DNA from: Torpedo marmorata
Taxonomy: Eukaryota
Length of the DNA: 64,000 nucleotides
Assembly (NCBI GenBank): GCA_977017645.1
Contig: OZ360236.1
Coordinates: 31,682,001-31,746,000 of the forward strand
Direction: 5' to 3'
Numbering within the stretch: the first letter of the stretch is position 1; every line of letters starts with the position of its first letter. The position numbers were made by a program, and so were the translations under genes. Below the pieces are notes generated by a model. That model saw only the letters and a program-made list of their open reading frames with translations. It was not told the origin of the DNA and ran no database searches. Shown here piece by piece: positions 24,998-53,217 of the stretch.

Positions 24998-25851
24998 TGT
25001 TATGGACCATGACTGACCATTTGGACTGCGGACGGTCAGCAGGAAGGATGAAGTCTTTTGGAGTACACACTGGGACCAGGTACTGAAAGAGTTAACTTGC
25101 CCAGGACTTGGTGTACCCAGAGAGAGAGAGAGAGAGCAGAGAGAGACAGGCTGTGGAAAAGATACTTTGTTGCACTTTTGCAAAAGCAGGTGCAGACCTC
25201 TGAAAAAAGCAAGCCGTTTGGAGTTGCAAAGGCTAGAGAACACAGCAAAATCCAGGCTTGTGCATCCCAGAGAAAAGGCTGGAAGAATAGCACATGGCCT
25301 CCTGTCTCAGAGAAATCCTGAGTTAAAGCAACTTTTGTGGAGAACAGGCATGAGATCAGCGAGACCAGCTGTGAGATCCAAGCACACGCCTCAATCAGTG
25401 GTATACTGATTTGGAGTCGCAATCCTCGTGAATCCAAAAGGGAAAGTCATCAGAGAAGAAAAAAACAAGCCAAGTATTCGTAAGCATAAACAGTCATTGT
25501 CTCTCTCCAACGTTCATTGAAAAGTCCTTCTACCAGCACACAGAGCTGAATTTGGAACCTGAACTTAGAGAGTAAATTTTTGTGGACTGTATTATATTTT
25601 TTTGACTGACTTGTTTTTATGACTGACCTGGGGTTTTTGGGGAACGTTTTTCCATTTTTACATGAGGGTTTGGCACAGACTGTAATGGTCTGGGCTTTAC
25701 ACACACACACACACCTTTTAGATAAGAATAGTGTTTATAGTGGGGTTAATTGTTGTGAAATTATATGTTTAATTGTCTTTAATAAATATAAATTTCAATT
25801 TTACCCCTTTTGCATTGCGTCTTCTGTCGTTGCTGGTTTGATTTTGTAACA
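24998..25851 (+). mobile_element. Solo LTR of the Gmr1-like family
   Basis: TGTTATGG...TGTAACA termini and 4-bp TSD CTAT (24994-97 and 25852-55). Confidence 0.93.
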
Positions 25852-29776: not shown

Positions 29777-31908
29777 TATGGCAGTAGCCAGGTTCCCCTC
29801 ACTGCAGGAAGCTTGACCAACCACATGAAAAATCACAGCATCTTAAAGGGTTCCTGCTTCATTGATATATCCAAAATGGCAATTGTCTCTGGGGATAAGT
29901 TGGTTACGCACCTGATTTTAAATCTAAAAATCTGGACATTGGTGGGAGGTTGGAGTTGGACTCTACACACTCTCCCCAGATTCCTTGCAATGTCTGCTTT
30001 CAAACCCAAGTCTAAAGCTATGCTCAGAGTGCACAAGTTGCAAGTGTAGTTTCCATCAGAAGTGTAACTGCAATGGGAATCCAATTTCACATAGGATCAG
30101 GGACAAAACTGACATCATATTCCAGTGATTACTGCCTGATGACACATCAGCATGCTGTGGAGCTTTGGCACTTTCTAAATAATTTATTATGCAACGCCAC
30201 ATGAGGTTCTTCAACACTGCTGTGCAAAAGGTCACATCTGAAATATTGCAGTCAACAATGGCTTAAACACAGTAAAATTTCCCAAAAAATCATCAAACAA
30301 AATCAGCTACATGAGAATATTTGGGTAGATGACCAAAAGATAGGTTTTAAGCTTTAAAGATCCTGAGATAGGGCCTTTGGCAGTTGTATTTCAACCAATT
30401 GCAATGTGTCAAATGAGATAACCATGTGGTCAGAAATGGGAAAAGTGCAGGTTTAAAGGAGATTTGCACAAAAAGATAAAGCAGGTGGGATTTGATTATA
30501 TGAGAAATGTAAAATCAAGATGCTGCTTAACTCAGACACAGTCAAGCAATCTCATGACATGGGAGATTATTTGTTTTATTGAGTCAATACAATTTCAATC
30601 TCATTTTGTTGCCTATTTCCTGATGATACCATTCACATAAAGATCTGCAATGCTCTACCTCAAAGAGCAGAGGAATCAGATTCCACAGGAACATCTAAGA
30701 GGTATCAGAAATGCATGTGGGGCAAACTGGGACGTGGGACTAATTAGACACTTCTTTCAAAGAGCCAGCATAGAAAAGGTGAGCTGAATGTTTCTCTTTT
30801 ATGCTTTAAGACACTCTAAGATTCAATGCAGATTAAATTATAGTTTGTATATGTGCATGGAAACAGTAGTTCCTATTCTTTGTAATTGAAATCAATTAGT
30901 GTTTGCCGTCTATAAAATATGTACCTCCTCAAAGACACTGGATGTCATGGGACATTCTTTTTGAGGGTTTGGGGCTTTCTTGGGGACAGAAAGCAGCACC
31001 ACAGTCAAGACAGGTAACAAGAGGAGTACATATATTTATTTTCAGTTAATTTACTTTGTTAATGTTCCAATGAAATTAGCACATCACTGAAGCCTCATGG
31101 ATCGACTGTAACTTTGGCATTTTTCTCTCACATTCCTCCTCCTAAAGAGCTGAAGCATTCCATATTGACAAGCATAGGTTTACAATATCCATACCTTCAT
31201 TACATTCGTTTTAAACATCATGGAAAGAACAAGTTAATAATTTGCTGTAAAATTTTTATTGACCAAGTGCATGACATGTTGGCAATGGACACAATGTGCT
31301 GCTTTAAAGTTTTTCCACATAGAAACTTAGTCCGAGTCTACCGTATATACTCGTGAAATTGTCAATTTTTTTGGACCACTTTCAGGCCAAAAAGGAGGGG
31401 GGGGGGGAAGAGGAGGGTCGATTTTTACATGGGTCAAACTTTTGAGGCTCAAGGCATTGTGAGCTCGGATGGCCAGGACCGGGTGGTAAGTCTGCGTTCA
31501 GGGCATCAGGAGCTCAGATGGGCGGGCGGCCGGGGCATCAGGATTTCGGATTGGCAGGCGGCCGGGGGGCAGCCACGGCGAGAATCAGCGGTTGGGAGCT
31601 GGGATAGGCAGGGGGGCCGAGGCGAGGATCCGCGGTCGGGAGCTTGGATGGGGGGGGGGGGTCGGCCGGTGAGTCGGGAGCTACGGTGGACGGGGGGCGA
31701 GGTTCCGCTGTAGAGACATCGGTAGCTCAGGAGGGCAGGCAGCCGGGTGAGGATCCATGGTCGAGAGCTTGGATGGGGAGGGCGTCAGGCACTCCGGTGG
31801 ACGGGCGGCCGGGTCTGACTGTTACACGGGTCATATAAAAACACCTGATTTTTGGGTAAAAGGGGTGGGGTCAACTATTACACGGTATCGATGATTACAC
31901 GAGTATAT

Positions 31909-32762
31909 TGTTATGGACAATGACTGACCATTTGGACTGTGGACGGTCAGCAGGAAGGATGAAGTCTTTTGGAGTACACACTGGGACCAGGTACTGAAAG
32001 AGTTAACTTGCCCAGGACTGGGTGTACTCAGAGAGAGACACACACACCGAGAGAGAAACAGGCTGTGGAAAGATACTTCGTTGCACTTTTGCAAAAGCAG
32101 GTACAAACCTCTGCAAAAAGCATTCAGATTCACTTTGGAGTTGCAAGAGGCTGGAAGAACACAGCCAAAATCCAGTCTTGTGCATCCCAGGGGAAAAGGC
32201 TGGGAGAAAAGCACATGGCCTCCTGTATCAGCAAAATCCTGAGTTAAAACAACTTTCGTGAAGAACAGGCGTGAGATCAGCGAGACCGGCTGTGAGATCC
32301 AAGTATACGCCTCAATCAAAACTGATTTGGAATCGCAATCCTCATGTACCTACCAAAAGGGAAAGTCATCAGGGAAGAAAAGCAGGCCAAGCATTCGTAA
32401 GCTTAAACAGTCAATGTCTCTTTCTCTCTCCAACGTTCATTAAGAAGTCCTTCATGCCAGCACACAGAGCTGAATTTGGACCCTGAACACAGTGATTTTT
32501 GTGGACTATTTTTGGGACTGACTTATTTTTATGACTGACCTGGGGTTTTGGGGAAGGTTTTTCCCTTTTTACATGAGGGTTGGGCACACACTAATGGTCT
32601 GGGCTTCACACACACTCTTTAGATAAGAATAGTGTTTATAGACATTTATAGTGTGGTTATTTGTTAAGAAATTATATGTTTAATTGTCTTTAATAAATAT
32701 AAATTTCAATTTTACCCCTTTTCCATTGCATCTTCTGTCGTTGCTGGTTTGAGTTTGTAACA
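31909..32762 (+). repeat. 5' LTR of copy A
   Basis: TG...CA termini, followed by AAT and the PBS. Confidence 0.93.
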
Positions 32763-32765
32763 AAT

Positions 32766-32778
32766 TGGGGGCTCGTCC
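32766..32778 (+). promoter_or_regulatory. Primer-binding site, tRNA-Pro (copy A)
   Basis: TGGGGGCTCGTCC equals the first 13 nt of the MLV-type tRNA-Pro PBS. Confidence 0.9.
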
Positions 32779-32839
32779 AAGGATTTGAATCAAGATCCAT
32801 CTTGGTAATTGAAGGAATCCCAGTCTGGTTTAAGACATT

Positions 32840-33443
32840 TAAGTCAAGTCACCTTTATTTGTCGTTCATTACCATATACACAAGTAAGACGAGATAGCGT
32901 TTCTCCAGGACCATGGGCAGATGTACATAAATATCATAATACAATAATAAAACTATAACATGCTAATACACATATATATCTAGGAATTGAGGAACCTGAT
33001 GACTTGGGGGAAAAAATTGCTGCACAGTCTGGACGTACGAGCCCAAGTGCTTCGGTACCTCCTTCCAGATGGCAAAAGGGAAAACAGTTTACCAAAGGGG
33101 TGTGAGAAGTCCTTCACAATGTCACAATGTTATTAGCCTTCCTCATGCATCTTGTGTTGTAGATGTCTGTCATGGTGGGAAGAGAGACACCAATAATTTT
33201 CTCTGCTAACCCCACTATCCTCTGCAGGGTCTTTCAGTCCGAGATGGTAGTTTCCAAGCCAAGCGGTGTTGCAATTGCTCAGAATACTCTCAATAAATCC
33301 CCTGTAGAATGTAATAAGGATAGAGGGTGGAAGATGAACTTTCCTCAGCCTTCGCAGGAAGTAAAGACGCTGCTGGGCTTTCTTGACTATGGAACTGGTG
33401 TTGAGGGACCAGGTGAGACTCTCTGCCAAGTGCACTCCTTTAG
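32840..33443 (-). mobile_element. Rex1/Babar-like LINE 3' end inserted in the leader of copy A
   Basis: [15 protein letters not shown] motif and (GACTT)n tail. It is absent from copies B and C. Confidence 0.8.
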
Positions 33444-33499
33444 TTCCTTTTGTAAAGCTAATTAAAAGTGTGTGTGTGTGTAACAAAAAACCAGCAACA

Positions 33500-36400
33500 A
33501 TGGATGTAGAAAATCTTTTGGAATCACCTGAACCTGATACTTTAAAAAAGGCTAAAAAGGAACAGTTAGTGGCTTTTGCAACAGAGTTGGGCATTGCTTC
33601 TGTAAAACCATCAATGAAAAAGGCAGAGATTTGGAGAAAAATTGCCAAATACTATATAAAAAGAAAAAAGTTTGAGGAGAGCGTGTTAGAGCAGTTTCCC
33701 AAGGGTAAACCTTCCGAGAACATACAGTTGGAACTAAAGAAATTGGAATTGGAACAAAAGAAATTAGACAGGGAAATGGAACAAAAGAGATTAGACTTGG
33801 ATGTAGTCAGGGAACAAAAGAGATTAGACACGGAATTGGAACAAAGATATTTGATTTAGAGAAAGAGGAGAACATTAGGCGATATGAGCCGGAAAAGATT
33901 AAGTTGGAAAATGAGAGGAGACAAGAAGAGCACCAAGATCAAATTCATCATCCTGTTGAGATGTTTTTGGCCAGTAGAGAAGTTAGGTTGGTTCCTCCAT
34001 TTGAGGAGGCGGAAATAGATAAGTACTTCCAGCATTTTAAGAAGGTGGCTGTGAAATTAAAATGGCCACAAGACCAATGGTCTCTTATGTTACAAAGTGT
34101 AATAAAAAGAAAAGCTCAGCAAGCTTATTCTACTATTACCACGGAGCAAGCTGCTGATTATGAAATGTTGAAAAAGGCTATACTCCAGGCTTATGAGTTA
34201 GTTCCAGAGGCTTATAGACAGAAGTTTAGAAATTTAAAAAGATCAGCAACCCAATCTTACACAGAGTTTGCCTATGAAAAGGTTGTGTTTTGACCGGTGG
34301 TACACGTCTAAGGCGGTAAACAATGATTACAATCAATTGAGAGAATTGATAATAATTGAGGAGATTAAAAGGTGTGTTCCTGAGGATATTAAGGCATACT
34401 TAGATGAAAAGGAGGTGCAAACTTGGCAAAATTCAGCTAAGTTAGCAGATGAATATGCTTTAACCCACAAGCCTAAGTGGACGTCAGGCAGAATTTTCCA
34501 AAAGGGCACTATGGATAATCCCAAACAAGTGGAAAGTAAATTTGGAAGTGGTGTTAAGGAAAGAGATGAAGGAAAGTGGAAAAGGGAAAACCCTTCGGGT
34601 CCCATTTGCCACTACTGTAGGAAGGCTGGTCATTTGCTAGCAAGCTGTCCAGTGTTGAAAAAGAGAGAAAAGGATGCAACACCTAATGCTTGTATTCAGA
34701 GTGAGAAGAGGCATAACACCCAGGAAGGAGACCAATTTACTGACAAAGTTAGGGATGTATTTAAACCTTTTGTGACTGATGGTTTTGTTTCAGTTAAGGC
34801 AGTATCAAAGCAAGTTCCAGTGAAAATCTTACGAGATACTGGAGCTGCTCAGTCCCTTGTGTTAGATAGTGTCTTGGAATTTTGTGATGAGACAGACACC
34901 GGTGAAATGAATTTAATTAAAGGAAATGGGGGTGATGTTGAGTCCATTCCTTTGCACAAAATAGTGTTAAACTCAGCCTTGGTGGAAGGACCTGTTATAA
35001 TAGGAGTGAGATCAGAGTTGCCAGTAGAAGGAGTCTCACTGTTGCTCGGCAATGACTTGGCTGAGAGTAAAGTAGTTCCTGCAGTGCAAATGACCACTAA
35101 GCCAGTCATTGATAAGTCAGAGGACTCTGATATTTATCCGGCACGTGCCATAACCAGGGCCATGTCTAAGAAAAATGTCACTGTAGAGAAGGCAGTGGAA
35201 AATAAATTGGTGAAAGAAAAAGTCAGTGATAATCAAAACCACCTGGAAAAGGTTGAGAAATCTCTTGTGTTCCACCCATACACTAATAAGACACCTAAAG
35301 GCACAGATTTGTCACTATCCCGACAGGAGCTAATAGCAAGGCAAAAGGAGGATCCTGATCTTCCTGAGGTGAGGGATAAGGTTCTCTCTAAAGAGGAGAT
35401 TAAGAAGGTGCCAGTGGGTTATGATGAACAAGATGGGGTGTTGATGAGAAAGTGGAGAACATGTGATGTTACTGCCAGTGAAGAATGGGCAGTAGTGCAG
35501 CATGTTGTGATCCCAAAAGTATATAGGGATGAAATAATAACTTTGGCTCATAGCACACCTTTAGGTGGTCACCTTGGGGTGAAGAAAACTATACTGAAGA
35601 TAATGAAACAATTTTATTGGCCCAGTTTGAGAAGGGAGGTTGTAAGCTTTTGCCGGGCCTGTCACACTTGTCAGGTGGTGGGTAAACCGAATCCGAGTCC
35701 CCCGGTGGCACCCTTGCAACCTATCCCTGCATTCAGTGAGCCTTTCTCGAGAGTGATTGTGGACTGTGTTGGCCCATTGCCAAAAACCAAAGCAGGGAAT
35801 GAGTATTTGTTAACAATTATGTGTGCAGCCACCAGATTTCCAGAGGTCATTCCTCTGAAAAACATTAAAGCAAAAGCAATTGTAAAGGCTATGGTAAAGT
35901 TTTTCACCTGGGTAGGTTTGCCAAGGGAAATTCAATCAGATCAGGGTAGTAATTTCATGTCAGGCATATTCCAAAAGGTGGTTGATAGACTGGGAGTTAA
36001 ACAGATTGTATCCTCTGCATACCATCCAGAAACTCAAGGGGCCTTGGAGAGGTCCCATTCGACTTTGAAAAACACGATTAAAAGTTATTGTTGTGAGAAG
36101 GAAAAGTATTGGGATGAGGAGGTTCATTTGTTGTTATTTGCATTGAGGGAGTCTGTCCAAGAATCACTTGGTTTTACTCCATTCAAGTTAGTTTTCGGAC
36201 ATGAGGTGAGAGGTCCTTTAAGTTTATTAAAAGTACAGTGGATTAATAGTGATGTGCATTTAAATCTATTGGATTATGTTTCCAAATTTAAGGATCGGTT
36301 GCATAAAACTTGCGAGATGGCAAGGGAGACTTTAAAGGCCACTCAACAGAGAATGAAGGTTTGGTATGATCGAAAGGCCAAGATGAGAACTTGGAAACCT

Positions 36401-38823
36401 GGTGAGAACATATTAGCTCTGTTTCCCACATATTCCAATCCTCTGAGGGCTAGATTTTCAGGACCCTATAGACAAAAATTAATGAGGTCACCTATGTCAT
36501 AGAAACACCTAATCGCAGACAAGACACACGGGTCTGTCATGTGAATATGATTAAGCCATATTTTGAACAGTTGCCACTCAAAGAGACTGAACATTTACTA
36601 GAGGGGCTGGTTATCGACCGGGGTAAGGAGGAGACAGATAAAACCAGTTTCAGAGAGGGTCATGGGACTTTTAATTATTTGGATTATGTGGTAGGACAGG
36701 GACAGTTGGCACCAGTAGAGGAAAAGGTCAGAATCAGAATTTATTGTCATGAACCAGTCATGAAATTCGGTGTTTTGCGGCAGCATCATAGAGCAATTAA
36801 CATTCATATTAATCATCTAACGACATTACTATAAAAAAATTATAAACAATAGTGCATGAAAAGTAAGGCAGTGTCTTTGGTTCATTGATTATTCAGGAAT
36901 CTGATGGCAGCAGGGAAGAAGCTGTCCTTGTGCCGTTGAGTTCTCGTCTTTAGGCTCCTGTACCTTTTTCCCCGATGGAAGCAGAGTGAAGAGGGCATGG
37001 CCTGGGTGGTGGGGGTCCTTGAGGATAGAGGTTGCTTTTTTAAGACACCGCCTCATGTAGATGTCCTCGATGAAGTGAAGTTTGGTGCCTGTGATGTCAC
37101 AGGCCGAGTTAACAACCTTCTGGAGTTTACTCTTGTCCTGGGAGTTGGAGCCTCCATACCAGGCTGTGATGCAACCAGCCAGAATGCTCTCCACGGTACA
37201 CCTGTAGAAGTTTACGAGAGTCTTTGGTGACATACCGAATCTCCGCAAACACCTTACAAAGTATAGCCGCTGACGAGCCTTCTTTGTGATTGCATCCATG
37301 TGGATGCTCCACGACAGATCCTCGGAGATGTTGACACCCAGGAATTTGAATTTCTTGACCCTCCCCATGACTGAGCCTTCGATGAGGACAGGGTCATGTT
37401 CCCCTGACTTCCTCCTGAAGTCCACAATCATCTCCTTGGTTTTGCTGACGTTGAGCTCAAGGTTGTTGTCATTACACCATTCAACGAGCTGATCTATCTC
37501 CCTCCTGTACGCTTCCTCATTGCCGTTTGTTATTCTGCCGACAATTGTGGTGTCATCGGCAAACTTGTAGATGGCATTGGAATTGTGCCTGGCCACAGTC
37601 ATGAGTGTATAACGAGTAGAGCAGTGGACTAAGCACGCATCCTTGGGGTGCGCCTGTGTTGATAATCAGTGAGGACGAGACGTTGTTTCCAATTGGTACT
37701 GACTGTGGTCTTCCGATGAGAAAGTCAAGGATCCAGTTGCAGAGGGGGGTACAGAGGCCTAGAGTTTGTAGCTTCTTGACCAGCACTGAGGGAATAATGG
37801 TATTGAAGGCCGAGCTGGAGTCGATGAAGAGCAACCGTATGTATGAATTGCTGTTTTCGAGGTGGTCCAGAGCTGAGTGGAGAGCCAGCGATATTGCATC
37901 TGCTGTGCAGCGATTGTGGCGATAGGCGAATTGCAGTGGGTCCATATCTTTGCTTAGGTATGTGTTAATTCTGGCCATGACCAGCCTCTCAAAGCATTTC
38001 ATCACAGTAGAAGTTAGTGCAACTGGGCGGTAGTCGTTGAGGCAGCTCACACTACTCTTCTTGGGTACCGGGATGATTGATGCACTTTTGAAGCAGGTCG
38101 GAACCTCTGACTGCCGCAATGAGAGGTTGAAAATGTCCGTGAACACTCCGGCTTGTTGGTTGGCACAGATTTTCAATACCCTGCCAGGTACGCCGTCACC
38201 CTCTTGAATGATGTTCTGATGTTGTGACTATTTCCGAGTTCCCTGTTCCAACTGGTAAGAAAACTCTGAGGAGGTTCCCGGGAATGATTGGCTACTACCG
38301 CAAGTTCTGTGAAAACTTTGCAGATCTTGCGCTCCCTCTCACAAATTTGCTTAGAAAGGGAGAAAAATTTGTATGGTCGACAGGGTGTCAGGAAGCATTT
38401 GTCAAATTGAAAGCCATTTTATGCCACCAACCTGTGCTTAAATCACCTGATATAGAAAAGCCATTTTCTTTAGCCGTGGATGCTAGCGATAAAGCTGTGG
38501 GTGCGGTGCTGTTACAGAGGAAGAACGAAGAGGACATTGACCATCCGGAATCCTTCTTCTCGAAGAGGTTTAATGATCATCAAAGGAATTATTCCACCAT
38601 AGAAAAAGAGTTGTTAGCTCTACAACACTTTGTGGGTATATCTGTACAGCTCAAAAACCACTCAGTGTATACTGACCATAATCCATTGGTTTTTCTTTGT
38701 AAAATGAAAAATAAGAATCGACGGTTGAAGAATTGGAGTCTAATTTTGCAAGAATATGATTTAATAATAACACATATAAAAGGGAAAGACTATGTAATCG
38801 CTGATTGTCTTTCAAGATGCTAA
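33500..38823 (+). pseudogene. Gag-PR-IN-(RT remnant)-RNase H polyprotein of copy A, frameshifted
   Basis: CHYCRKAGHLLASC knuckle, LRDTGA protease, HHCC and D-D-E integrase, then GMIGYYRKF and VDASD...ADCLSR. No YxDD. Confidence 0.9.
36729..38220 (-). mobile_element. Rex1/Babar LINE inserted in the RT remnant of copy A
   Basis: RT ORFs 37553-38176 and 36889-37602 with a TTCTGA tail. The Gypsy sequence is contiguous across it (AAAAGGT|TGTGACT). Confidence 0.92.
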
Positions 38824-40046
38824 ACTGTATAAATGAAAATAGTTCATATTTTTGTGTTTGTGGATGAACATTGTGGGTTTTTTGTATATTGTAACACCTC
38901 AATTTCCAAAATTTTGTTCTTGCAGATCAAAGTTTTCTTTGTGGGTGGGAGGTGTTATGGACCAGGACTGACCATTTGGACTGCGGACGGTCAGCAGGAA
39001 GGATGAAGTCTTTTGTAGTACTGTTATGGACTATAACTGACCATATGGACTGCGGACGGTCAGCAGGAAGGATTAAGTCTTTTGGAGTATACACTGGGGC
39101 CAGGTACTGAAAGAGTTAACTTCCCCAGCTACTTGGTGTACCCAGACAAGATACATTGTTGCACTCTTGGTGTACCCAGACAGAGAGAGACCAGAGAGAG
39201 AGATAGACTAGACAAGATACATTTGTTTCACTTCTGCAAAAAGCAGGGGCAGATCTCTGCAAAGCACACAGTTTGTGAGTTGCAAAGGCTACAGGACACA
39301 GCCAAATCCAGGCTTGTGTGAAGTCAGAGAAAAGACTGACAGGATAGCACATGGATTCCTGTCTCAGAGAAATTCTGAGAAAAAGCAACTTCTGTGGAGA
39401 ACAGGCGTGAGATCAGCGAGACTAGCTGTGAGATTCAAGCATACGCCTAAATCAGTGGTATACTGATCTGGAACTTGCAATCCTTATGAACCTACAAGAA
39501 GGGGACATCATCAGAGAAGAAAACAAGTACTTGTAAGCATAAACAGTCATTGTCTCTCTCCAACGTTCATTCAGAAGTAATTCTACCAGACACAGAGCTG
39601 AAGTTGAAGCCTGAACTTAGAGAGTGGATTTTGTGGACTGTATTATTCTTTTTTTTGACTGACTTGTTTTTTTATGACTGACCTGGGGTTTTGGGGAAAG
39701 TTTTTCCATTTTTACATAAGGGTTGGGCACAGACTGTAATGGTCTGGGCTTTACACACACACACCTTTTAGATAAGAATAGTGTTATAGACATTTATAGT
39801 GGGGTTAATTGTTGTGAAATTATATGTTTAATTGTGTTTAATAAATAGTAATTTCAATTTTACCCCTTTTGCATTGCGTCTTCTGTCATTGCTGGTTTGA
39901 ATTTGTAACAAATTGGGGGCTCGTCCTAGGATTTGAATCAAAATCCATCTTGGTAATTGAAGGAATCCCAGTTTGGTTTAAGGCATTCCTTTTGGTAAAG
40001 CTAATTAAAAGCTCGTGTGTGTGTAACAAAAAAAAACCCAGCAACA

Positions 40047-43000
40047 ATGGATGTAGAATATTTTTTGGAATCACCTGAACCTGATACTTTAAAAAAGGCG
40101 AAAAAGGAACAGTTAGTGGCTATAGCAACAGAGTTGGGCATTGCTTCTGTAAAACCATCTATGAAAAAGGCAGAGATTGGGAGAAAAATTGTCAAATACT
40201 ATATAAAAGAAAAAAAATTTGAGGAGAGCATGTTAAACCTTCTGAAAACATACAGTTGGAACTAAAGAAATTGGAGGCAGACAGGGAACAAAAGAACAGG
40301 GAATTGGAACAAAAGAAATTAGAATTGGAATTGGAACGAAAGAGATTAGACTTAGAGAACGATGAGAAAAATAGGAGATATGAGCTGGAAAAGATGAGGT
40401 TGGAAAATGGGAGGAGACAAGAAGAGCGCCAAGATCAAATTCGTCATACTGCTGAGGGGTTTTTGGCGAGGAGAGAAGTTAGGTTGGTTCCTCCATTTGA
40501 GGAGGCAGAAATAGATGTACTTCCAACATTTTGAGAAAGTGGCTGTGAAATTAAAATGGCCACAAGACCAATGGTCTCTTATGTTACAAAGTGTAATAAA
40601 AGGAAAAGCTCAGCAAGCTTATTCTACTCTTACCACAGAACAAGCTGCTGATTATGAAACGGTGAAGAAGGCTATACTCCAGGCTTATGAGTTAGTTCCA
40701 GAGGCTTATAGACAGAAGTTTAGAAATTTAAAAAGATCAGCAACCCAATCTTATACAGAGTTTGCCTATGAAAAAGTTGTGTGTTTTGACAGATGGTGCA
40801 CATCTAAGGAAGTAAACAATGATTACAATCAATTGAGAGAATTGATAATAATCGAGGAGATAAAAAGGTGTGTTCCTGAGGATATTAAGGCATACTTAGA
40901 TGAAAAGGAGGTGAAAACTTGGCAAAATTCAGCTAAGTTAGCAGATGAATATGCTTTAACCCACAAGCCTAAGTGGACGTCAGGTAGAATTTTCCAAAAG
41001 GTCACGGTGGAAAATCAGAAGCCAGTGGAAAGTAAATTTGGAAGTGGTGTTAAGGAAAGGGATGAAGGAAAGTGGAAAAGGGAAGACAATTCGGGTCCCA
41101 TTTGCCACTACTGTAGGAAGGCTGGTCATATGCTAGCAAGCTGTCCAGTGTTGAAAAAGAAGAGAGAAAAGGATGCAACACCTAATGCTTGTATTCAGAG
41201 TGAGAAGATGCATAACACCCAGGAAGGAGATAAATTTACTGACAAAGTTAAAGATGTATTTAAACCTTTTGTGACTGATGGTTTTGTTTCAGTTAAGGCA
41301 GGATCAAAACAAGTGCCAGTGAAAATCTTGCGAGATACTGGAGCTGCTCAGTCACTTGTGTTAGATAGTGTCTTGGAATTTTGTGAAGCTACTGACACCG
41401 GTGACATAAATTTAATAAAAGGAATTGGTGGTGAGGTAGAGTCCATTTCTTTGCACAAAATAGTATTGGACTCAGACTTGGTGGAAGGACCAGTTATAAT
41501 CGGAGTGAGATCAGAGTTGCCAGTAGAAGGAGTCTCACTGTTGTTAGGCAATGACTTGGCCAAGGGTAAAGTAGTTCCTGCAGTGCGAATGACCACTAAG
41601 CCCGTCATTGATAAGTCAGAGAAAGACTCTGATATTTATCCGGCATGTGCCATAACCAGGGCCATGTCTAAGAAAAATGTCACTGTAGAGAAGGCAGTGG
41701 AAAATAACTTGGTAAATGAAAAAGAAACTGATAATCAAGAAAACCTGGAAAAGGTTGAGCAATCTCCTATGTTACACCCATCCACTGATAAGACACCTAA
41801 AGGCACAGATTTGTCACTATCCCGACAGGAGTTAATAGCAAGGCAAAAGGACGATCCTGATCTTGTTCAGGTGAGGGATAATGTTCTCTCTGAAGAGGAG
41901 ATTAAAAAGGTGCCAGTAGGTTATTATGAAAAAGATGGGGTGTTGATGAGAAAGTGGAGACCACGTGATGTGCCTGCCAATGAAGAATGGGCAGTAGTGC
42001 AGCAGGTTGTAATCCCTAAAGTATATAGGGATGCAATAATAACTTTGGCTCATAGTACACCCTTAGGTGGTCATCTTGGGGTGAAGAAAACTATAAGGAA
42101 GATAATGAAACAATTTTATTGGCCCAGTTTGAGAAGGGAGGATGTAAGCTTTTGCCGGGCCTGTCACACTTGTCAGGTGGTGGGTAAACCTAATCAGGGT
42201 CCCCCGGTGGCACCCTTGCAACCTATCCCTGCTTTCAGTGAGCCTTTCTCGAGAGTAATTGTGGACTGTGTTGGCCCATTGCCCAAAACCAAAGCGGGGA
42301 ATGAATATTTGTTAACAATTATGTGTGCAGCCACCAGATTTCCAGAGGCCATTCCTCTGAGAAACATAAAAGCAAAGTCAATTGTAAAGGCTATGGTAAA
42401 GTTTTTCACCTTGGTAGGTTTGCCAAGGGAAATTCTATCAGATCAGGGCAGTAATTTCATGTCAGGCGTTTTCCAGCAAATGGTTGATGGACTAGGAGTT
42501 AAACAGATTGTATCTTCTGCGTACCATCCAGAAAGTCAAGGGGCCTTGGAGAGGTTCCATTCGACTTTGAAAACCATGATTAGAACCTATTGTTGTGAGA
42601 AGGAAAAGGATTGGGATGAGGGGGTTCATTTGTTGTTATTTGCAGCGAGGGAGTCTGTCCAAGATTCACTTGGATTTAGTCCATTCGAGTTAGTTTTCGG
42701 ACATGAGGTGAGAGGTCCTTTAAGATTATTAAAAGAACAGTGGATTAATCGTGATGTGCATTTAAATCTGTTAGATTTTGTTTCCAAATTTAAGGATCGA
42801 TTGCATAGGGCTTGTGAGATGGCAAAGGAGAATTTAAAGGCCACTCAACAGAGAATGAAGGTTTGGTATGATCGAAAGGCAAAGATTAGAACTTTTAAAC
42901 CTGGTGAGAACGTATTAGTTCTGTTTCCCATCCATTCAAATCATCTTAGGACTAGATTTTCAGGACCCTATAGAGTTAAGTCAAAAATTAATGATGTCAC

Positions 43001-43428
43001 CTATGTCATAGAAACACCTAATCGCAGATGAGACACACAGGTCTGTCATGTGAATATGATTAAGCCATATTTTGAACAGGTGCCACACAAAGGGACTGAA
43101 CATTTACCAGAGATACTGGTTATTGACAGGGGTAAGGAGGAGACAGATAAAACCAGTTTCAGAGAGGGTCATGGGACTGTTAATTCTCGGGGTTATGTAG
43201 TAGGACAGGGGCAGTTGGCGCCAGTAGAGGCAAAGGTTGTGACTATTTCCGAGTTCCCTGTTCCAACTGGTAAGAAAACTCTGAGGAGGTTCCTGGGAAT
43301 GATTGGCTACTACCGCAAGTTCTGTAAAAACTTTGCTGATCTTGCGCTCCCTCTCACAAATTTGCTTAGAAAGAAAGAAAAATTTGTATGGTCAACAGGT
43401 TGTCAGGAAGCATTTGTCAAATTGAAAG
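40047..43428 (+). pseudogene. Copy B Gag-PR-IN-RT remnant (continues at 49283)
   Basis: An 838-aa open stretch at 40515-43031 covers capsid, knuckle, protease and integrase. There are frameshifts in the N-terminal Gag. Confidence 0.9.
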
Positions 43429-46400
43429 TGTTACAAAATCAAACCAGCAACGACAGAAGACGCAATGCAAAAGGGGTAAAATTGAAATTATTATTTATTA
43501 AACACAAGTAAACATATAATTTCACAACAATTAACCCCACTATAAACGTCTATAAACTCTATTCTTATCTAAAAAGGTGTATGTGTGTGTGTGTAAAGCC
43601 CAGACCATTAGTCTGTGCCCAACCCTTATGTAAAAATGGAAAAACTTTCCCCAAAAACCCCTGGTCAGTCAAAAAAAAGAGAATAATACAGTCCACAAGA
43701 TCCACTCTCTAAGTTCAGGCTTCAATACAGCTCTGAGTCTGGTAGAAGTACTTCTGAATGAACGTTGGAGAGAGACAATGAATGTTTATGCTTACAAATA
43801 CTTGTTTTCTTCTCTGATGACGTCCCCTTCTTGTAGGTTCATAAGGATTGCAAGTTCCAGATCAGTTTACCACTGATTTAGGCGTATGCTTGAATCTCAC
43901 AGCTAGTCTCGCTGATCTCACGCCTGTTCTCCACAGAAGTTGCTTTTTCTCAGAATTTCTCTGAGACAGGAGGTCATGTGCTATCCTGTCAGTCTTTTCT
44001 CTGACTTGCACAAGCCTGGATTTGGCTGTGTCCTGCAGCCTTTGCAACTCACAAACTGTGTGCTTTGCAGAGATCTGCCCCTGCTTTTTGCAGAAGTGAA
44101 ACAAATGTATCTTGTCTAGTCTGTCTCTCTCTCTCTGGTCTCTCTCTGTCTGGGTACACCAAGAGTGCAACAATGTATCTTGTCTGGGTACACCAAGTAG
44201 CTGGGGAAGTTAACTCTTTCAGTACCTGTCCCCAGTGTATACTCCAAAAGACTTCATCCTTCCTGCTGACCGTCCGCAGTCCAAATGGTCAGTCATGGTC
44301 CATAACACCTCCCACCCACAAAAGAAATTTTGGTCTGCAAGAACAAAATTTAGGAAAGTAAGTGAGGTGTCAGAATATAAACAAAATCTACAATGTTCAT
44401 CCACAAATACAAAATATGAACTATTTTCATTGATAAAGTTTAACATCTAGAAAGACAATCAGCAATTACATTATCTCTCCCTTTTATATGATTACCAAAT
44501 TATATTCTTGTAAAATTAGACTCCAATTCAACAACCGTCGATTCTTATTTTTCATTTTTCAAAGAAAAACCAATGGATTATGGTCAGTATACACCATGAG
44601 TGGTTTTTGAGCTGTACAGATATACACATCAAAATGTTGTAGAGCCAACACAAGAGCCAACAACTCTTTCTCTATAGTTGAATAATTCCTTTGATGATCA
44701 TTGAACTTCTTCGAGAAGTAGGATACCGGGTGGTCAATGTCCTCTTCGTTCTTCTTCTGTAACAGCACCGCACCCACAGCTTCATCACTCGCATCCACGG
44801 CTAAAGAAAACGACTGTTCTAAATAAGGTGACTTAAGCACAGGTTGGTGGCATAACATGGCTTTCAATTTGACAAATGTTTCCTGACAACCTGTTGACCA
44901 TACAAATTTCTCTTTCTTTCTAAGCAAATTTGTGAGAGGGAGCGCAAGATCAGCAAAGTTTTTACAGAACTTGCGGTAGTAGCCAATCATTCCCAGGAAC
45001 CTCCTCAGAGTTTTCTTACCAGTTGGAACAGGGAACTCGGAAATAGCGACAACCTTTGCCTCTACTGGCGCCAACTTCCCCTGCCCTACAACATAACCCC
45101 GAGAATTAACAGTAGCATTACCCTCTCTGAAACTGGTTTTATCTGTCTCCTCCTTACCCCTGTCAATAACCAGTACCTCTGGTACATTTTCAGTCCCTTT
45201 GTGAGGCACCTGTTCAAAATACAGCTTAATCATATTCACATGATAGACCTGTGTGTCTCGTCTGCGATTAGGTGTTTCTATGACATAGGTGATTCTATGA
45301 CATAGGTGACATCATTAATTTTTGACTTAACTCTATAGGGTCCTGAAAATCTAGCCCTAAGAGGATTTGAATGGATGGGAAACAGAACTAATACGTTCTC
45401 ACCAGGTTTAAAAGTTCTCATCTTCGCCTTTCGATCATACCAAACCTTCATTCTCTGTTGAGTGGCCTTTAAATTCTCCTTTGCCATCTCACAAGCCCTA
45501 TGTAACCGATCCTTAAATTTGGAAACATAATCGTAACAGATTTAAATGCACATCACGATTAATCCACTGTTCTTTTAATAATCTTAAAGGACCTCTCACC
45601 TCATGTCCGAAAACTAACTCGAATGGACTAAAACCAAGTGAGTCTTGGACAGACTCCCTCGCTGCAAATAACAACAAATGAACCCCCTCATCCCAATGCT
45701 TTTCCTTCTCACAACAATAGGTTCTAATCATGGTTTTCAAAGTCGTTTGGAACCTCTCCAAGGCCCCTTGACTTTCTGGATGGTACGCAGAGGATACAAT
45801 CTGTTTAACTCCCAGTCCATCAACCAATTGTTGGAAAACGCCTGACATGAAATTACTGCCCTGATCTGATTGAATTTCCCTTGGCAAACCTACCAAGGTG
45901 AAAAACTTTACCATAGCCTTTACAATTGACTTTGCTTTTATGTTTCTCAGAGGAATGGCCTCTGGAAATCTGATGGCTGCACACATAATTGTTCACAAAT
46001 ATTCATTCCCCGCTTTGGTTTTGGGCAATGGGCCAACACAGTCCACAATCACTCTCGAGAAAGGCTCACTGAAAGCAGGGATAGGTTGCAAGGGTGCCAC
46101 CGGGGGACCCTGATTAGGTTTACCCACCACCTGACAAGTGTGACAGGCCCTGCAAAAGCTTACAACCTCCCTTCTTAAACTGGGCCAATAAAATTGTTTC
46201 ATTATCTTCCTTATAGTTTTCTTCACCCCAAGATGACCACCTAAGGGTGTACTATGAGCCAAAGTTATTATTGCATCCTTATATACTTTAGGGATCACAA
46301 CCTGCTGCACTACTGCCCAATCTTCATTGGCAGGAACATCACGTGGTCTCCACTTTCTCATCAACACCCCATCTTTTTCATAATAACCCACTGGCACCTT

Positions 46401-49278
46401 TTTAATCTCCTCTTCAGAGAGAACCTTATCCCTCACCTGAACAAGATCAGGATCGTCCTTTTGCCTTGCTATTAACTCCTGTCGGGATAGTGACAAATCT
46501 GTGCCTTTAGGTGTCTTATCAGTGGATGGGTGTAACATAAGAGATTGCTCAACCGTTTCCAGGTTTTCTTGATTATCAGTGTCTTTTTCATTTACCAAGT
46601 TATTTTCCACTGCCTTCTCAACAGTGGCATTTTTCTTAGACATGGCCCTGGTTATGGCACATGCCGGATAAATATCAGAGTCTTTCTCTGACTTATCAAT
46701 GACTGGCTTAGTGGTCATTCGCACTGCAGGAACTACTTTACCCTTGGCCAAGTCATTGCCTAACAACAGTGAGACTCCTTCTACTGGCAACTCTGATCTC
46801 ACTCCTATTTTCACTGGTCCTTCCACCAAGTGTGAGTCCAATACTATTTTGTGCAAAGGAATGGACTCTACCTCACCACCAATTCCTTTAATTAAATTTA
46901 TGTCACCGGTGTCAGTAGCTTCACAAAATTCCAAGACACTATCTAACACAAGTGACTGAGCAGCTCCAGTATCTCGCAAGATTTTCACTGGCACTTGTTT
47001 TGATCCTGCCTTAACTGAAACAAAACCATCAGTCACAAAAGGTTTAAATACATCTTTAACTTGGTCAGTAAATTTATCTCCTTCCTGGGTGTTATGCATC
47101 TTCTCACTCTGAATACAAGCATTAGGTGTTGCATCCTTTTCTCTCTTCTTTTTCAACACTGGACAGCTTGCTAGCATATGACCAGCCTTCCTACAGTAGT
47201 GGCAAATGGGACCCGAATTGTCTTCCCTTTTCCACTTTCCTTCATCCCTTTCCTTAACACCACTTCCAAATTTACTTTCCACTGGCTTCTGATTTTCCAC
47301 CGTGACCTTTTGGAAAATTCTACCTGACGTCCACTTAGGCTTGTGGGTTAAAGCATATTCATCTGCTAACTTAGCTGAATTTTGCCAAGTTTTCACCTCC
47401 TTTTCATCTAAGTATGCCTTAATATCCTCAGGAACACACCTTTTTATCTCCTCGATTATTATCAATTCTCTCAATTGATTGTAATCATTGTTTACTTCCT
47501 TAGATGTGCACCATCTGTCAAAACACACAACTTTTTCATAAGCAAACTCTGTATAAGATTGGGTTGCTGATCTTTTTAAATTTCTAAACTTCTGTCTATA
47601 AGCCTCTGGAACTAACTCATAAGCCTGGAGTATAGCCTTCTTCACCGTTTCATAATCAGCAGCTTGTTCTGTGGTAAGAGTAGAATAAGCTTGCTGAGCT
47701 TTTCCTTTTATTACACTTTGTAACATAAGAGACCATTGGTCTTGTGGCCATTTTAATTTCACAGCCACCTTCTCAAAATGTTGGAAGTACTTATCTATTC
47801 CTGCCTCCTCAAATGGAGGAACCAACCTAACTTCTCTACTAGCCAAAAACCCCTCAGCAGGATGACGAATTTGATCTTGGCGCTCTTCTTGTCTCCTCTC
47901 ATTTTCCAACCTCATCTTTTCCAACTCATATTTCCTATTTCTCTCATCGTTCTCTAAGTCTAATCTCTTTTGTTCTAATTCCAATTCTAATTTCTTTTGT
48001 TCCCTGGCTGCCTCCAATTCCAATTTCTTTAGTTCCAACTGTATGTTTTCAGACGGTTTACCCTTGGGAAACTGCTCTAACACGCTCTCCTCAAACTTTT
48101 TTTCTTTTATATAGTATTTGACTATTTTTCTCCCAATCTCTGCCTTTTTCATAGATGGTTTTACAGAAGCAATGCCCAACTCTGTTGCTATAGCCACTAA
48201 CTGTTCCTTTTTCGCCTTTTTTAAAGTATCAGGTTCAGGTGATTCCAAAAAATGTTCTACATCCATTGTTGCTGGTTTTTTGTTACACACACACTAGCTT
48301 TTAATTAGCTTTACAAAAGGAATGCCTTAAACCAAACTGGGATTCCTTCAATTACCAAGATGGATTTTGATTCAAATCCTAGGACGAGCCCCCAATTTGT
48401 TACGAAATCAAACCAGCAACGACAGAAGACGCAATGCAAAAGGGGTAAAATTGAAATTATTATTTATTAAACACAAGTAAACATATAATTTCACAACAAT
48501 TAACCCCACTATAAACGTCTATAAACTCCATTCTTATCTAAAAGGTGTATGTGTGTGTGTGTAAAGCCCAGACCATTACAGTCTGTGCCCAACCCTTATG
48601 TAAAAATGGAAAAACTTTCCCTAAAAACCCCAGGTCAGTTTAAAAAAAAGAGAATAATACAGTCCACAAGATCCACTCTCTACGTTCAGGCTTCAATACA
48701 GCTCTGAGTCTGGTAGAAGAACTTCTGAATGAACGTTGGAGAGAGACAATGACTGTTTATGCTTACAAATACTTGTTTTCTTCTCTGATGACGTCCCCTT
48801 CTTGTAGGTTCATAAGGATTGCAAGTTCCAGATCAGTATTCCACTGATTTAGGCGTATGCTTGAATCTCACAGCTAGTCTCGCTGATCTCACGCCTGTTC
48901 TCCACAGAAGTTGCTTTTTCTCAGAATTTTTCTGAGACAGGAGGCCATGTGCTATTTTGTCAGTCTTTTCTCTGACTTCACACAAGCCTGGATCTGGCTG
49001 TGTCTTGTAGCCTTTGCAACTCACAACTGTGTGCTTTGCAGAGATCTGCCCCTGCTTTTTGCAGAAGTGAAACAAATGTATCTTGTCTAGCCTGTCTCTC
49101 TCTCTCTGGTCTCTCTCTGTCTGGGTACACCAAGAGTGCAACAATGTATCTTGTCTGGGTACACCAAGTAGCTGGGGAAGTTAACTCTTTCAGTACCTGG
49201 CCCGAGTGTATACTCCAAAAGACTTCATCCTTCCTGCTGACCGTCTGCAGTCCAAATGGTCAGTCATAGTCCATAACA
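43429..49278 (-). mobile_element. Gmr1-like copy C, inserted antisense inside copy B
   Basis: 5' LTR 48398-49278, 3' LTR 43429-44307, TSD AAAG (43425-28 and 49279-82), PBS 48382-94, PPT 44308-19. Total length 5850 bp. Confidence 0.95.
44440..48266 (-). pseudogene. Copy C Gag-PR-IN-(RT remnant)-RNase H polyprotein
   Basis: Open from ATG 48266 to a premature stop at 45993. Integrase core, RT thumb and RNase H follow, with small indels. Confidence 0.9.
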
Positions 49279-49282
49279 AAAG

Positions 49283-49705
49283 CCATGTTATGCCACAAAC
49301 CTGTGCTTAAGTCACCTAATTTAGAACAGTCGTTTTCTTTAGCCGTGGATGCCAGCGATGAAGCTGTGGGTGCGGTGCTGTTACAGAAGAAGAACGAAGA
49401 GGACGTTGACCATCCGGTATCCTACTTCTCGAAGAAGTTCAATGATCATCAAAGGAATTATTCAACTATAGAAAAAGAGTTGTTGGCTCTTGTGTTGGCT
49501 CTACAACACTTTGATGTGTATATCTGTACAGCTCAAAAACCACTCAGTGTATACTGACCATAATCCATTGGTTTTTCTTTGTAAAATGAAAAATAAGAAT
49601 CGACGGTTGTTGAATTGGAGTCTAATTTTACAAGAATATAATTTGGTAATCACTCATATAAAAGGGAAAGATAATGTAATTGCTGATTGTCTTTCTAGAT
49701 GTTAA
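49283..49705 (+). pseudogene. RNase H part of copy B
   Basis: LAVDASD, EKELLA, YTDH and IADCLSRC-stop, with one frameshift. Confidence 0.88.
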
Positions 49706-52355
49706 GCTTTATCAATGAAAATAGTTCATATTTTGTATTTGTGGATGAACATTGTAGATTTTGTTTATATTCTGACACCTCAATTACTTTCCTAAATTTT
49801 GTTCTTGCAGACCAAAATTTCCTTTGTGGGTGGGAGGTGTTATGGACCATGACTGACCATTTGGACTGCGGACGGTCAGCAGGAAGGATGAAGTCTTTTG
49901 GAGTATACACTGGGGACAGGTACTGAAAGAGTTAACTTCCCCAGCTACTTGGTGTACCCAGACAAGATACATTGTTGCACTCTTGGTGTACCCAGACAGA
50001 GAGAGACCAGAGAGACAGAGACAGACTAGACAAGATACATTTGTTTCACTTCTGCAAAAAGCAGGGGCAGATCTCTGCAAAGCACACAGTTTGTGAGTTG
50101 CAAAGGCTGCAGGACACAGCCAAATCCAGGCTTGTGCAAGTCAGAGAAAAGACTGACAGGATAGCACATGACCTCCTGTCTCAGAGAAATTCTGAGAAAA
50201 AGCAACTTCTGTGGAGAACAGGCGTGAGATCAGCGAGACTAGCTGTGAGATTCAAGCATACGCCTAAATCAGTGGTATACTGATCTGTAACTTGCAATCC
50301 TTATGAACCTACAAGAAGGGGACGTCATCAGAGAAGAAAACAAGTATTTGTAAGCATAAACAGTCATTGTCTCTCTCCAACGTTCATTCAAAAGTAATTC
50401 TACCAGACACAGAGCTGAAGTTGAAGCCTGAACTTAGAGAGTGGATTTTGTGGACTGTATTATTCTTTTTTTTGACTGACTTGTTTTTTTATGACTGACC
50501 TGGCGTTTTTGGGGAAAGTTTTTCCATTTTTACATAAGGGTTGGGCACAGACTGTAATGGTCTTTTAGATAAGAATAGTGTTATAGACGTTTATAGTGGG
50601 GTTAATTGTTGTGAAATTATATGTTTAATTGTGTTTAATAAATAGTAATTTCAATTTTACCCCTTTTCCATTGCGTCTTGTGTCGTTGCTGGTTTGATTT
50701 TGTAACAGTACACACTGGGACCAGGTACTGAAAGAGTTAACTTGCCCAGGACTGGGTGTTCTCAGAGAGAGACACCGAGAGAGAGAGACAGGATGTGGAA
50801 AGATACTTTGTTGCACTTTTGCAAAAGCAGGTGCAAACCACTGCAAAAAGCATTCAGATTCAGTTTGGAGTTGCAAGAGGCTGGAAGAACACAGCCAAAA
50901 TCCAGTCTTGTGCATCCCAGGGGAAAAGTCTGGGAGAATAGCACATGGACTCCTGTATCAACAAAATCCTAAGTTAAAACAACTTTCGTGAAGAACAGGT
51001 GTGAGATCAGCAAGACCGGCTGTGAGATCCAAGTATACGCCTCAATCAAAACTGATTTGGAATCGCAATCCTCGTGCACCCACCAAAAGGGAAAGTCATC
51101 ATTGAAGAAAAGCAGGCCAAGCATTCGTAAGCTTAAACAGTCATTGTCTCTCTCTCCAACATTCATTAAGAAGTCCTTCATGCCAGCACACAGAGCTGAA
51201 TTTGGACCCTGAACATAGAGAGTGATTTTTGTGGACTGTATTTTTTGGGACTGACTTATTTTTATGACTGACCTGGGGTTTTGGGGAAGGTTTTTCCATT
51301 TTTACATGAGGGTTGGGCACAGACTGTAATGGTCTAGATTTTACACACACACACTCTTTAGATAAGAATAATGTTTATAGATGTTTATAGTGGGGTTAAT
51401 TGTTAAGAAATTATATGTTTAATTGTCTTTAATAAATATAAATTTCAATTTTACCCCTTTTGCATTGCATCTTCTGTCGTTGCTGGTTTGAATTTGTAAC
51501 AATATACAGTATTTTTATAGGTTCTTGTGACAGTATTTTTATAGGTTCTTGTGAAAGATCACTCCAATTTTTCTATCACCACAAATGTTGCCTGACCTGC
51601 TAAGAATTCCTAACATCTGCAGCATTTTGTTTTTCGATGATGCAACAATTAACCTGCTAGAAACCGCTTTTGGTCAAAAACATGAGTGTTTGGCTGCCAA
51701 TTTTTCAAATGTAGCACCTTGACTCCGAGGTCCGTGGCAGTGAGCTACCCGCTCACTTAAGTTCAACTCTTTTTAAAAGTCAATAATAAAATTTCAATTG
51801 TCTTCAACTAGTTAAAATAAAGTGTACAACAGCAACACCCACATTTATGGCAGTTCACAGCGTACGAGTTTAAAAAGAAGCTTGCTCCAAGAATCTGTTT
51901 AATCAAAAATACAGACAGAAAATATTGGAAATACACAAGGTCAAGTTGCATCTGCTCAGAGTGAATGTTTCAGGTTGATGATCCATCACAGAGGTCATTG
52001 CCCTGATACATTAACACTGTCTGAACATGTTGAGTTTTCCAGCATTTTTTTTTTTTTTTTTAAATTTTGATTTCCTTGCAACTTTTGCTTTTAAAGCCTG
52101 CTTAGCCAAATGGTTGGGTTTTCCATCAAAAAACTGCAACAAGATCAATGTTAACATCAATGTAGGAACCACTTATATTTGTATAACAGTCACACCTGTT
52201 TTTCTGGCAGTTAATAGAACATTATAGCACAGAAAACAGGCCCTTTGACCCTTGTAGTCTGTGCTGTGCAGAACTATTATTCTGCCTAAAAAACACAAAT
52301 GCTGGAGAAACTCAGCAGGTCAAACAGTGTCTTTTATGTAGCAAAGGTAGAAATA

Positions 52356-52396: not shown

Positions 52397-53115
52397 AGAA
52401 AATGCCGGCAGGCGTCCGAACAAAAGAGTGAGGGGGGATGGCAAAGGCAGGAGATGATAGGTGGAGAAAGGAGGGAGGGGACAGCAGCAAAGAGGGGGAG
52501 GAGGGATGGCTGGGTAGGTGGAGAAAAACAGGAAGGACAGGTGAGGGGGAGGGGAAGGGAACAACAAACAGGTTTAGTGGAAAGCAGAAAAGTCAATGTT
52601 AATGCCATCTGGCTGGAGAGTGCCTAGACGGAAAATGAGATGTTGTTCTTCCAATTTGCGGGTAGTCTGGGTGGGATAGTACATAAGGCCATGGACAGAC
52701 ATGTGAGTGAGGGAGTGTGACCCGGAATTGAAATGGTTGGCTACTGGGAGGTCGCTGTTGTTGCGGACGGAGAGGAGGTGCTCAGCAAAGCGGTCTCCCA
52801 ATCTACGACCGGTCTCTCCAATGTAGAGAAAGCCACAAAGGGAGCACCGGATGCAGTAAATAAGTTCTCTGGATGTACAATTGAAGTGTAGTTTCACTTG
52901 GAAAGCCTGTTTGGGGCCCTGGACCGTGGTGAGGGGGGAGGTGTGGGCGCAGGTGTTGCACCTCCTGCGGGCACAGGGGAAGGTGCCGGGGGTGCGATGG
53001 GTGGGGAGGGATGAGTGCACGAGTGAATCGCGGAGGGAGCGGTCCCTACGGAAGGCCGAGAGGGTAGGTGAAGGAAAAATGTGTCTGGTGGTGGGATCCT
53101 GTAGTAAGTGCCGGA

Positions 53116-53217
53116 AAGCCCGAAACGTCGGTTCTCATACTTTGATGAAGGGCTCAAGCCTGAAACGTCGGTTCTCATACTTTGATGAAGGGCTCAAGCC
53201 CGAAACATCAGTTATGT
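53116..53217 (+). ncRNA. Tandem 40-nt hammerhead units (~2.5 copies)
   Basis: Unit AAGCCCGAAACGTCGGTTCTCATACTTTGATGAAGGGCTC starts at 53116, 53156 and (partially) 53196. Confidence 0.7.

Follow-up and report, generated by a model that had tools for sequence, protein, structure and literature searches.

Gmr1-type gypsy elements without a reverse transcriptase core appear to be the majority allele of one recombining family in Torpedo marmorata

A 64-kb stretch of the Torpedo marmorata genome (contig OZ360236.1, positions 31,682,001 to 31,746,000; hereafter the window), from an assembly of 6.2 Gb, contains three nested Gmr1-type gypsy retrotransposons. Their nesting was resolved by self-comparison of the window and by reading of the junctions: element B lies in the 3′ long terminal repeat (LTR) of element A, and element C is inserted, inverted, in the RNase H (RH) region of B (Table 1). 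Each has LTRs of the form TG...CA, a primer binding site (PBS), a polypurine tract and a private 4-nucleotide (nt) target site duplication (TSD), so that the three separate TSDs proposed in the first-pass annotation of this DNA (ATAT, GTAC and AAAG) are borne out. The two LTR subtypes that it had distinguished, one in A and one in B and C, do differ, by ~12%. LTR pairs diverge by 4.7% in A, 2.4% in B and 2.6% in C, and all three elements are now broken by stop codons, frameshifts or insertions. All three also lack the catalytic core of the reverse transcriptase (RT), and comparison with other genomic copies points to this RT-less form being an allele of one recombining family, not a clade.

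Pfam analysis of the reading frames in the window gave the order SCAN, CCHC, protease (PR; a weak match), Integrase_H2C2, rve, Integrase_p58_C and RT_RNaseH, which upholds the earlier description of a Gmr1-type order Gag-PR-integrase (IN)-(RT)-RH in all copies. RVT_1 was absent from all 10 element-derived frames scanned, so the absence of the RT core stands. The RVT_1 matches inside A, in 2 of the 12 frames scanned, came from the inserted antisense fragment of a long interspersed nuclear element (LINE), and not from the retrotransposon itself. The loss had been placed at one common junction, and the joint is indeed identical in A, B and C. Relative to RT-complete siblings, exactly 771 nt (257 codons) are missing in frame, comprising the fingers and the palm with its YxDD motif; the native IN-RT linker, the palm end, the thumb and RH are retained. 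In complete copies, the RT core is flanked by two imperfect 11-nt direct repeats, alike at 8 of 11 positions. Splicing was rejected as the origin of the gap, as the ends of the skipped piece read AC..CT, not GT-AG. YxDD was present in 82 of 95 RT-complete copies sampled and in none of 101 RT-less ones, and the catalytic residues were intact in 92 to 99 of 94 to 101 RT-less copies per site.

These comparisons changed the reading of the junction itself. The approximately 30 residues after the integrase end (HVNMIKPYF) do run on in frame, but they are the native IN-RT linker, also found in RT-complete copies, and the segment GHGT..GYVVGQG, which had been read as the RT thumb, is the palm end that precedes it. 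A fusion of IN, thumb and RNase H that is stable as a protein is not established by these data. A free fusion is doubtful because the linker is kept, together with a hydrophobic stretch conserved in homologues; this stretch is a plausible protease site, and IN would likely still be cut from thumb-RH.

On the evidence of domain order and homologues, the family can be assigned to the Gmr1 clade of Ty3/gypsy elements. RT-complete siblings read IN-linker-RT-RH, with integrase upstream of RT, and the same Pfam order is found in the database proteins P0001 and P0002. The homologues that the junction peptide has in databases are polyproteins of Gmr1 order, with rays supplying the best named ones; the batoid proteins P0001 and P0004 are close to the element (61 to 66% identity). 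None of the best 120 longer homologues lacked RVT_1. Among the best 120 short homologues, two (P0153, whose cluster has 5 members, and P0164) have the IN C terminus joined to thumb-RH without RVT_1, at other breakpoints.

Genome-wide, copies were counted by exact sequence patterns, which give lower bounds; reversed-pattern controls returned 0. Deleted junctions numbered at least 19,304 (17,944 + 1,360, the latter with a variant base discussed below), and the two arms of the intact RT gave 6,010 and 6,419 matches, corresponding to ~6,000 to 6,400 RT-complete copies. The ratio of RT-less to RT-complete copies is thus ~3:1, about three quarters of the family being RT-less, and a family made up mostly of RT-complete members is not what the genome contains. 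A search of the genome with P0004 recovered RT-complete members, many with open frames of 1,500 to 1,600 amino acids, whose DNA is 95 to 97% identical to B and C and 91% identical to A. A second, older RT-complete Gmr1-like family (L031-L048, L058), at ~75% DNA identity and mostly decayed, was also seen.

For each form, the first 60 matches on contig C1 were sampled, and a further 40 + 40 loci were picked by markers seen in young copies; the helper marker was taken from top-scoring open copies and may favor intact helpers, as we call the RT-complete siblings. Four near-duplicate rows were removed. In the random sets with matching TSDs, LTR divergence was 0 to 3.8% in RT-less copies (n = 28) and 0.8 to 3.3% in RT-complete ones (n = 19; P = 0.84). 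Among RT-less copies that have an LTR pair, matching and diverse 4-nt TSDs flank 28 of 32 in the random set and 33 of 39 in the young set. RT-less insertions lie on both strands of many contigs, and the number of junctions with their separate TSDs shows that amplification followed the deletion. The proposal of a long-lived RT-less form that still transposes is supported by these data; its LTR ages span those of the helpers rather than describing a single short-lived burst, the contrary outcome set beforehand. PBS variants are common to both samples. Because RT-complete copies share LTRs, PBS and ages with the RT-less ones, the donor of RT is best sought in these full-length siblings, one of the two sources that had been envisaged; the other, a complementary RT-only partner, is not needed because copies with RT also have Gag, PR and IN for most of their length. 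The commonest PBS variant (31/80 and 23/78 in the two forms) diverges from the tRNA-end-like variant after 11 bases. A search for the tRNA primer found 5,435 matching places, many of them PBSs of the element itself, and the PBS of A is one that we take to be of the tRNA-Pro type.

The 771-nt deletion looks old and single. Sites outside the search pattern are linked to it, at −31 to −29 (r2 0.64 to 0.78) and at +28 (r2 0.83), and derived bases are strongly partitioned between RT-less copies and helpers (56:3 versus 4:54 at −29; 49:5 versus 0:55 at +28). A seemingly fixed difference at +25 proved in a control search to be an artifact of the search pattern and was not counted. The palm remnant shows graded haplotypes in RT-less copies (IYLG, NYLG, NSLG and NSLS/NSRG), whereas helpers keep IYLG. 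The same 771-nt skip was found in contigs of five of seven public sequencing runs (X1-X5), representing four studies and four organism labels, one run possibly being of the source organism and X1 perhaps being RNA. The joint was not seen in runs X6 and X7, for which contigs show presence, not absence. As the skip and its linked left-flank bases recur under four organism labels, sequence comparison suggests that the deletion predates several species.

Away from the junction, the two forms cannot be told apart. The fixation index (Fst) between RT-less and RT-complete copies (60 versus 59 rows) is 0 to 0.05 along the element and rises to 0.21 to 0.29 only in two 150-nt junction windows, and linkage to the deletion (r2) reaches background within about 50 to 80 nt on both sides. 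Nearest neighbors are of the same form as often as expected by chance (gag, 44/90; PR-IN, 56/97; IN, 59/110; RH, 57/112; LTR, 49/92). Trees of Gag-PR, IN, thumb-RH and LTR require 25 to 34 changes of state, as do shuffled labels (27 to 36), whereas a tree built from the junction flanks after exclusion of the pattern columns requires 6 compared with 38.4 for shuffles, none of 300 shuffles being as low. The nearest IN relatives of the window copies are RT-complete, and in every domain the distances between young copies of the two forms match those within each form. Recombinants were found right beside the junction, as 4 of the 40 loci picked by the left-flank marker of young helpers are RT-less. 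The separate RT-less family or lineage proposed in the first-pass annotation is therefore not seen: both forms are mixed on all four domain trees. That the forms are indistinguishable outside ~80 nt of the junction suggests constant recombination between them. Template switching between co-packaged RNAs is an established route to such mixing.

A second common lesion bears on what the RT-less copies need. A 7-nt frameshift ahead of the later RNase H catalytic residues is carried by 1,260 copies (5.5%), compared with 21,791 that are intact at this site. Among the first 30 carriers, 23 were RT-less, 3 were RT-complete and 4 were unclassified; the RT-less share of classified carriers (23/26, versus 75% expected) is not significantly raised (P = 0.17). 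The frameshift occurs in old and newborn copies, including some with LTR divergence of 0 and 0.2%, and its site lies between short repeats, so that some recurrence is possible. Because this allele propagates and reaches newborn copies, RNase H is probably not required in cis, which weakens the claim that the RT-less form borrows only polymerase activity. Both common lesions, the RT deletion and the RNase H frameshift, lie downstream of Gag-PR-IN. One lesion within Gag-PR-IN, a 1-nt loss in an A run, occurs in both forms (5/101 RT-less and 2/94 RT-complete copies).

Coding frames gave less direct indications. The synonymous bias noted among A, B and C is real (pairwise ratio of nonsynonymous to synonymous substitution rates [dN/dS] 0.26 to 0.62), but helpers carry the same variants, so that it is no evidence of selection in RT-less copies; among common variants, purifying selection is evident (relative omega 0.32; P = 5e-17). 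Newborn RT-less copies are as open as helpers, which hints at a benefit in cis: at LTR divergence below 0.25%, 14 of 26 RT-less and 14 of 24 RT-complete copies have lesion-free frames, and the stop intercepts are 0.18 ± 0.20 and 0.08 ± 0.17, respectively. Among random RT-less copies, 2 of 57 have an open frame.

We propose, with a probability of about 0.75, that the RT-less form is copied by the RT of its siblings, recombines with these helpers and is the commoner allele in a single gene pool, RNAs that are still translated through Gag probably being at an advantage. The deletion would have arisen once, probably through a template switch at the microhomology of the 11-nt repeats. RT-less and helper RNAs would then be co-packaged, the helper providing the whole RT, including its RNase H; the RT-less RNA, packaged with helper RNA and RT, would be copied, recombined and integrated. 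Template switching in mixed particles would replace Gag, PR, IN, RH and LTR sequence, and the palm remnant adjoining the junction would meanwhile erode. An open frame might be favored in cis, as for the mouse element IAP 1-delta-1, and the shorter RT-less RNA might outcompete the helper by ~3:1. By the same analogy, the odds are slightly in favor of translation through Gag aiding the packaging of RT-less RNA. A bolder version, of which we are doubtful, holds that frequency-dependent selection keeps an RT-less allele older than several species at close to 75%. This allele would provide an excess of Gag and protease, and perhaps of integrase, with RT coming from the minority allele, and the two would re-assort nearly every cycle.

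Several points weigh against this proposal. The samples are small (196 of ~25,000 copies), come mostly from one contig and were selected by exact patterns. Private RT-less variants indicated purifying selection in the first sample (relative omega 0.41; 24 nonsynonymous [N] and 17 synonymous [S], P = 0.008); with more copies they gave 1N/5S in Gag-PR (P = 0.002), 14N/4S in IN and 4N/2S in thumb-RH, and the mirror test gave erratic results for RT-complete copies (11N/3S in Gag-PR). When haplotype support was demanded, relative omega was 0.60 in RT-less copies (P = 0.19) and 0.72 in helpers, and four stop codons are common to RT-less copies only. As the three versions of the test are mutually inconsistent, selection private to RT-less copies was rejected as a finding, and recombination together with young templates could hold the frames open without selection in cis. 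Gene conversion between genomic copies may contribute to the mixing. Finally, 1,360 junctions have the helper-type base at +25 and, of 12 such junctions examined, 1 also has the helper-type left codon; these junctions fit a second origin and close recombination alike, and the two cannot be told apart.

The RT-less form might instead be a pure passenger, akin to a defective-interfering genome, that needs only signals in cis and whose frame is kept open by helper recombination and young templates. This is possible, if on balance unlikely: Fst near 0 away from the junction, the nonsignificant private purifying signal with haplotype support, the apparently neutral IN-private variants and the spreading RNase H frameshift are all as a passenger would have them, and chance yields an in-frame deletion one time in three. 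Yet no lesion in Gag-PR-IN is as frequent as the RNase H allele, the A-run loss excepted, newborn RT-less copies bear no higher lesion load than helpers, and the private variants of Gag-PR (1N/5S) run the other way. The coverage map further shows that larger deletions never took over, despite the shorter RNA that they would give. A separate semi-autonomous lineage that borrows polymerase alone, making particle, integrase and RNase H itself, is improbable, and as to lineage this model is largely refuted. The kept catalytic residues and the low pairwise dN/dS would agree with it, and RNase H from a separate donor can be envisaged, as the two subunits of the asymmetric Ty3 RT dimer each contribute one active site (PMC3851607). 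However, no clade exists away from the junction, the conservation is common to helpers, and the RNase H frameshift has spread through copies that are, where classified, mostly RT-less.

Recurrent loss at a deletion hot spot, with microhomology removing RT again and again from different helpers and no persistent allele, would explain the mixed domain trees and the 1,360 junctions with a helper-type base, and the 8/11 repeats offer a substrate. It is nevertheless very improbable, and refuted for the bulk of junctions: RT-less copies share derived flanking bases that almost never occur in helpers, the YLG motif was lost stepwise, and the linked left-flank bases are the same under other organism labels. 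An assembly artifact, or duplication at the DNA level instead of retrotransposition, has the slightest probability of all. The few tandem or near-identical pairs, from which the four rows were dropped, would suit it, but it is refuted because of the diverse matching TSDs and the occurrence of the joint in independent public runs; the scatter of insertions over many contigs, in both orientations, speaks against it as well.

Table 1 Features of the three nested elements (positions in the window)
Feature	Position	Strand	Remarks
Element A	31909-51501	+	TSD ATAT
A 5′ LTR	31909-32762	+	Older LTR subtype, TG...CA; TSD ATAT 31905-31908 directly before
A primer binding site	32766-32778	+	
A coding region Gag-PR-IN-linker-[RT core missing]-thumb-RNase H	33500-38820	+	Three frameshifts and LINE insertion
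A RT-deletion junction	36658-36668	+	Older haplotype, palm Y and L retained
Antisense LINE fragment in A's thumb region	36728-38221	-	Later arrival; sole RVT_1 source within A
A polypurine tract	38941-38952	+	
A 3′ LTR, first part	38953-39021	+	Terminates in B's TSD GTAC
Element B	39022-50707	+	TSD GTAC; inserted in A's 3′ LTR
B 5′ LTR	39022-39910	+	Younger subtype
B coding region Gag-PR-IN-linker-thumb	40047-43428	+	Two frameshifts, one stop; interrupted by C
B RT-deletion junction	43167-43177	+	Single copy of imperfect 11-nt direct repeat
Element C	43429-49278	-	TSD AAAG; inserted in B's RNase H region
C 3′ LTR	43429-44307	-	TSD AAAG at 43425-43428 and 49279-49282
C coding region Gag-PR-IN-linker-thumb-RNase H	44443-48266	-	Two stops, three frameshifts
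C RT-deletion junction	45112-45122	-	
C 5′ LTR	48398-49278	-	
B RNase H remainder	49279-49702	+	One frameshift
B 3′ LTR	49838-50707	+	Then TSD GTAC 50708-50711
A 3′ LTR remainder	50708-51501	+	Then TSD ATAT 51502-51505

Other repeats accompany the nest. The same family has left two solo LTRs, at 4115-4972 (minus strand, TSD ATTG) and 24998-25851 (plus strand, TSD CTAT); the latter is about equidistant (8 to 9%) from the A and B/C subtypes and is perhaps a recombinant or a third subtype. The 5′ leader of A holds an insertion of ~600 nt (32840-33447) whose minus strand carries a LINE-like frame. Same-family neighbors and tandems with a shared LTR also occur among the sampled genomic loci, besides the triple nesting at 31909-51501. 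Penelope-like GIY-YIG fragments with inverted tails are present at 52574-53326 and 20572-21443, and LINE fragments are plentiful elsewhere in the window.

With ~25,000 datable copies, apparently in several species, the family is a large natural record of a defective genome and its helper. It allows tests from sequence alone of how a cheater can stand at 75% without extinction of its helper, of the rate of recombination between co-packaged RNAs and of which proteins are required in cis. It also calls for caution, since low dN/dS in a non-autonomous element is no proof of protein use when that element recombines with a helper. Repeat surveys based on RT would miss three quarters of the family, up to ~0.1 Gb of sequence if most copies were whole, although many are truncated.

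Defective elements with partial coding capacity that outrun their helpers are already known, examples being IAP 1-delta-1, wheat Sabrina_SA, those of a sugar beet survey and pararetroviruses. Within the limited literature searched, we found neither a gypsy form described as missing the RT core alone nor a case in which a deletion of this kind is in linkage equilibrium with its helper. Like other Gmr1-clade Ty3/gypsy elements, the present family has integrase upstream of RT and a single frame Gag-PR-IN-RT-RH (PMC8220671); it differs in its RT-less majority form, none having been found for the clade in the literature searched.

The closest analogue is IAP 1-delta-1 of the mouse, an element with an internal deletion and an open fused frame that uses proteins supplied in trans by complete elements and out-transposes them, its fusion protein being reported to help in cis (PMC6466679). 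The in-frame deletion and the open fused frame in newborn copies are shared with the form described here. IAP 1-delta-1 differs in being derived from a retrovirus and in its 1.9-kb deletion, which takes part of gag and pol (PMC6466679), whereas the gypsy element loses only the RT fingers and palm, exists in ~19,000 copies and is in linkage equilibrium with its helper. Semi-autonomous plant elements, such as wheat RLG_Sabrina_SA/WHAM with Wilma (PMC9744471), TR-GAG (PMC4350172), Quinta/Cereba and BARE-2 (bioRxiv 10.64898/2026.03.01.708851), likewise combine partial coding capacity with borrowed enzymes, long coexistence with a partner and shared PBS and LTR ends. As described, however, they are without RT and IN (or without Gag) and form distinct families, some almost unrelated to their partner. 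Here IN and RH are kept and both forms belong to one recombining pool, the RT-less copies having no lineage of their own apart from their partner, as TR-GAG- or Sabrina-type elements do. Non-autonomous endogenous pararetroviruses of grasses resemble the present case in that frequent recombination keeps the defective form compatible with its partner; in the account given (PMC5491270), that homogenization takes place between distinct viruses and only in noncoding regulatory sequence, whereas here it spans the whole element except ~100 to 150 nt. Against this background, the RT-less form is unusual in its scale, age and clarity.

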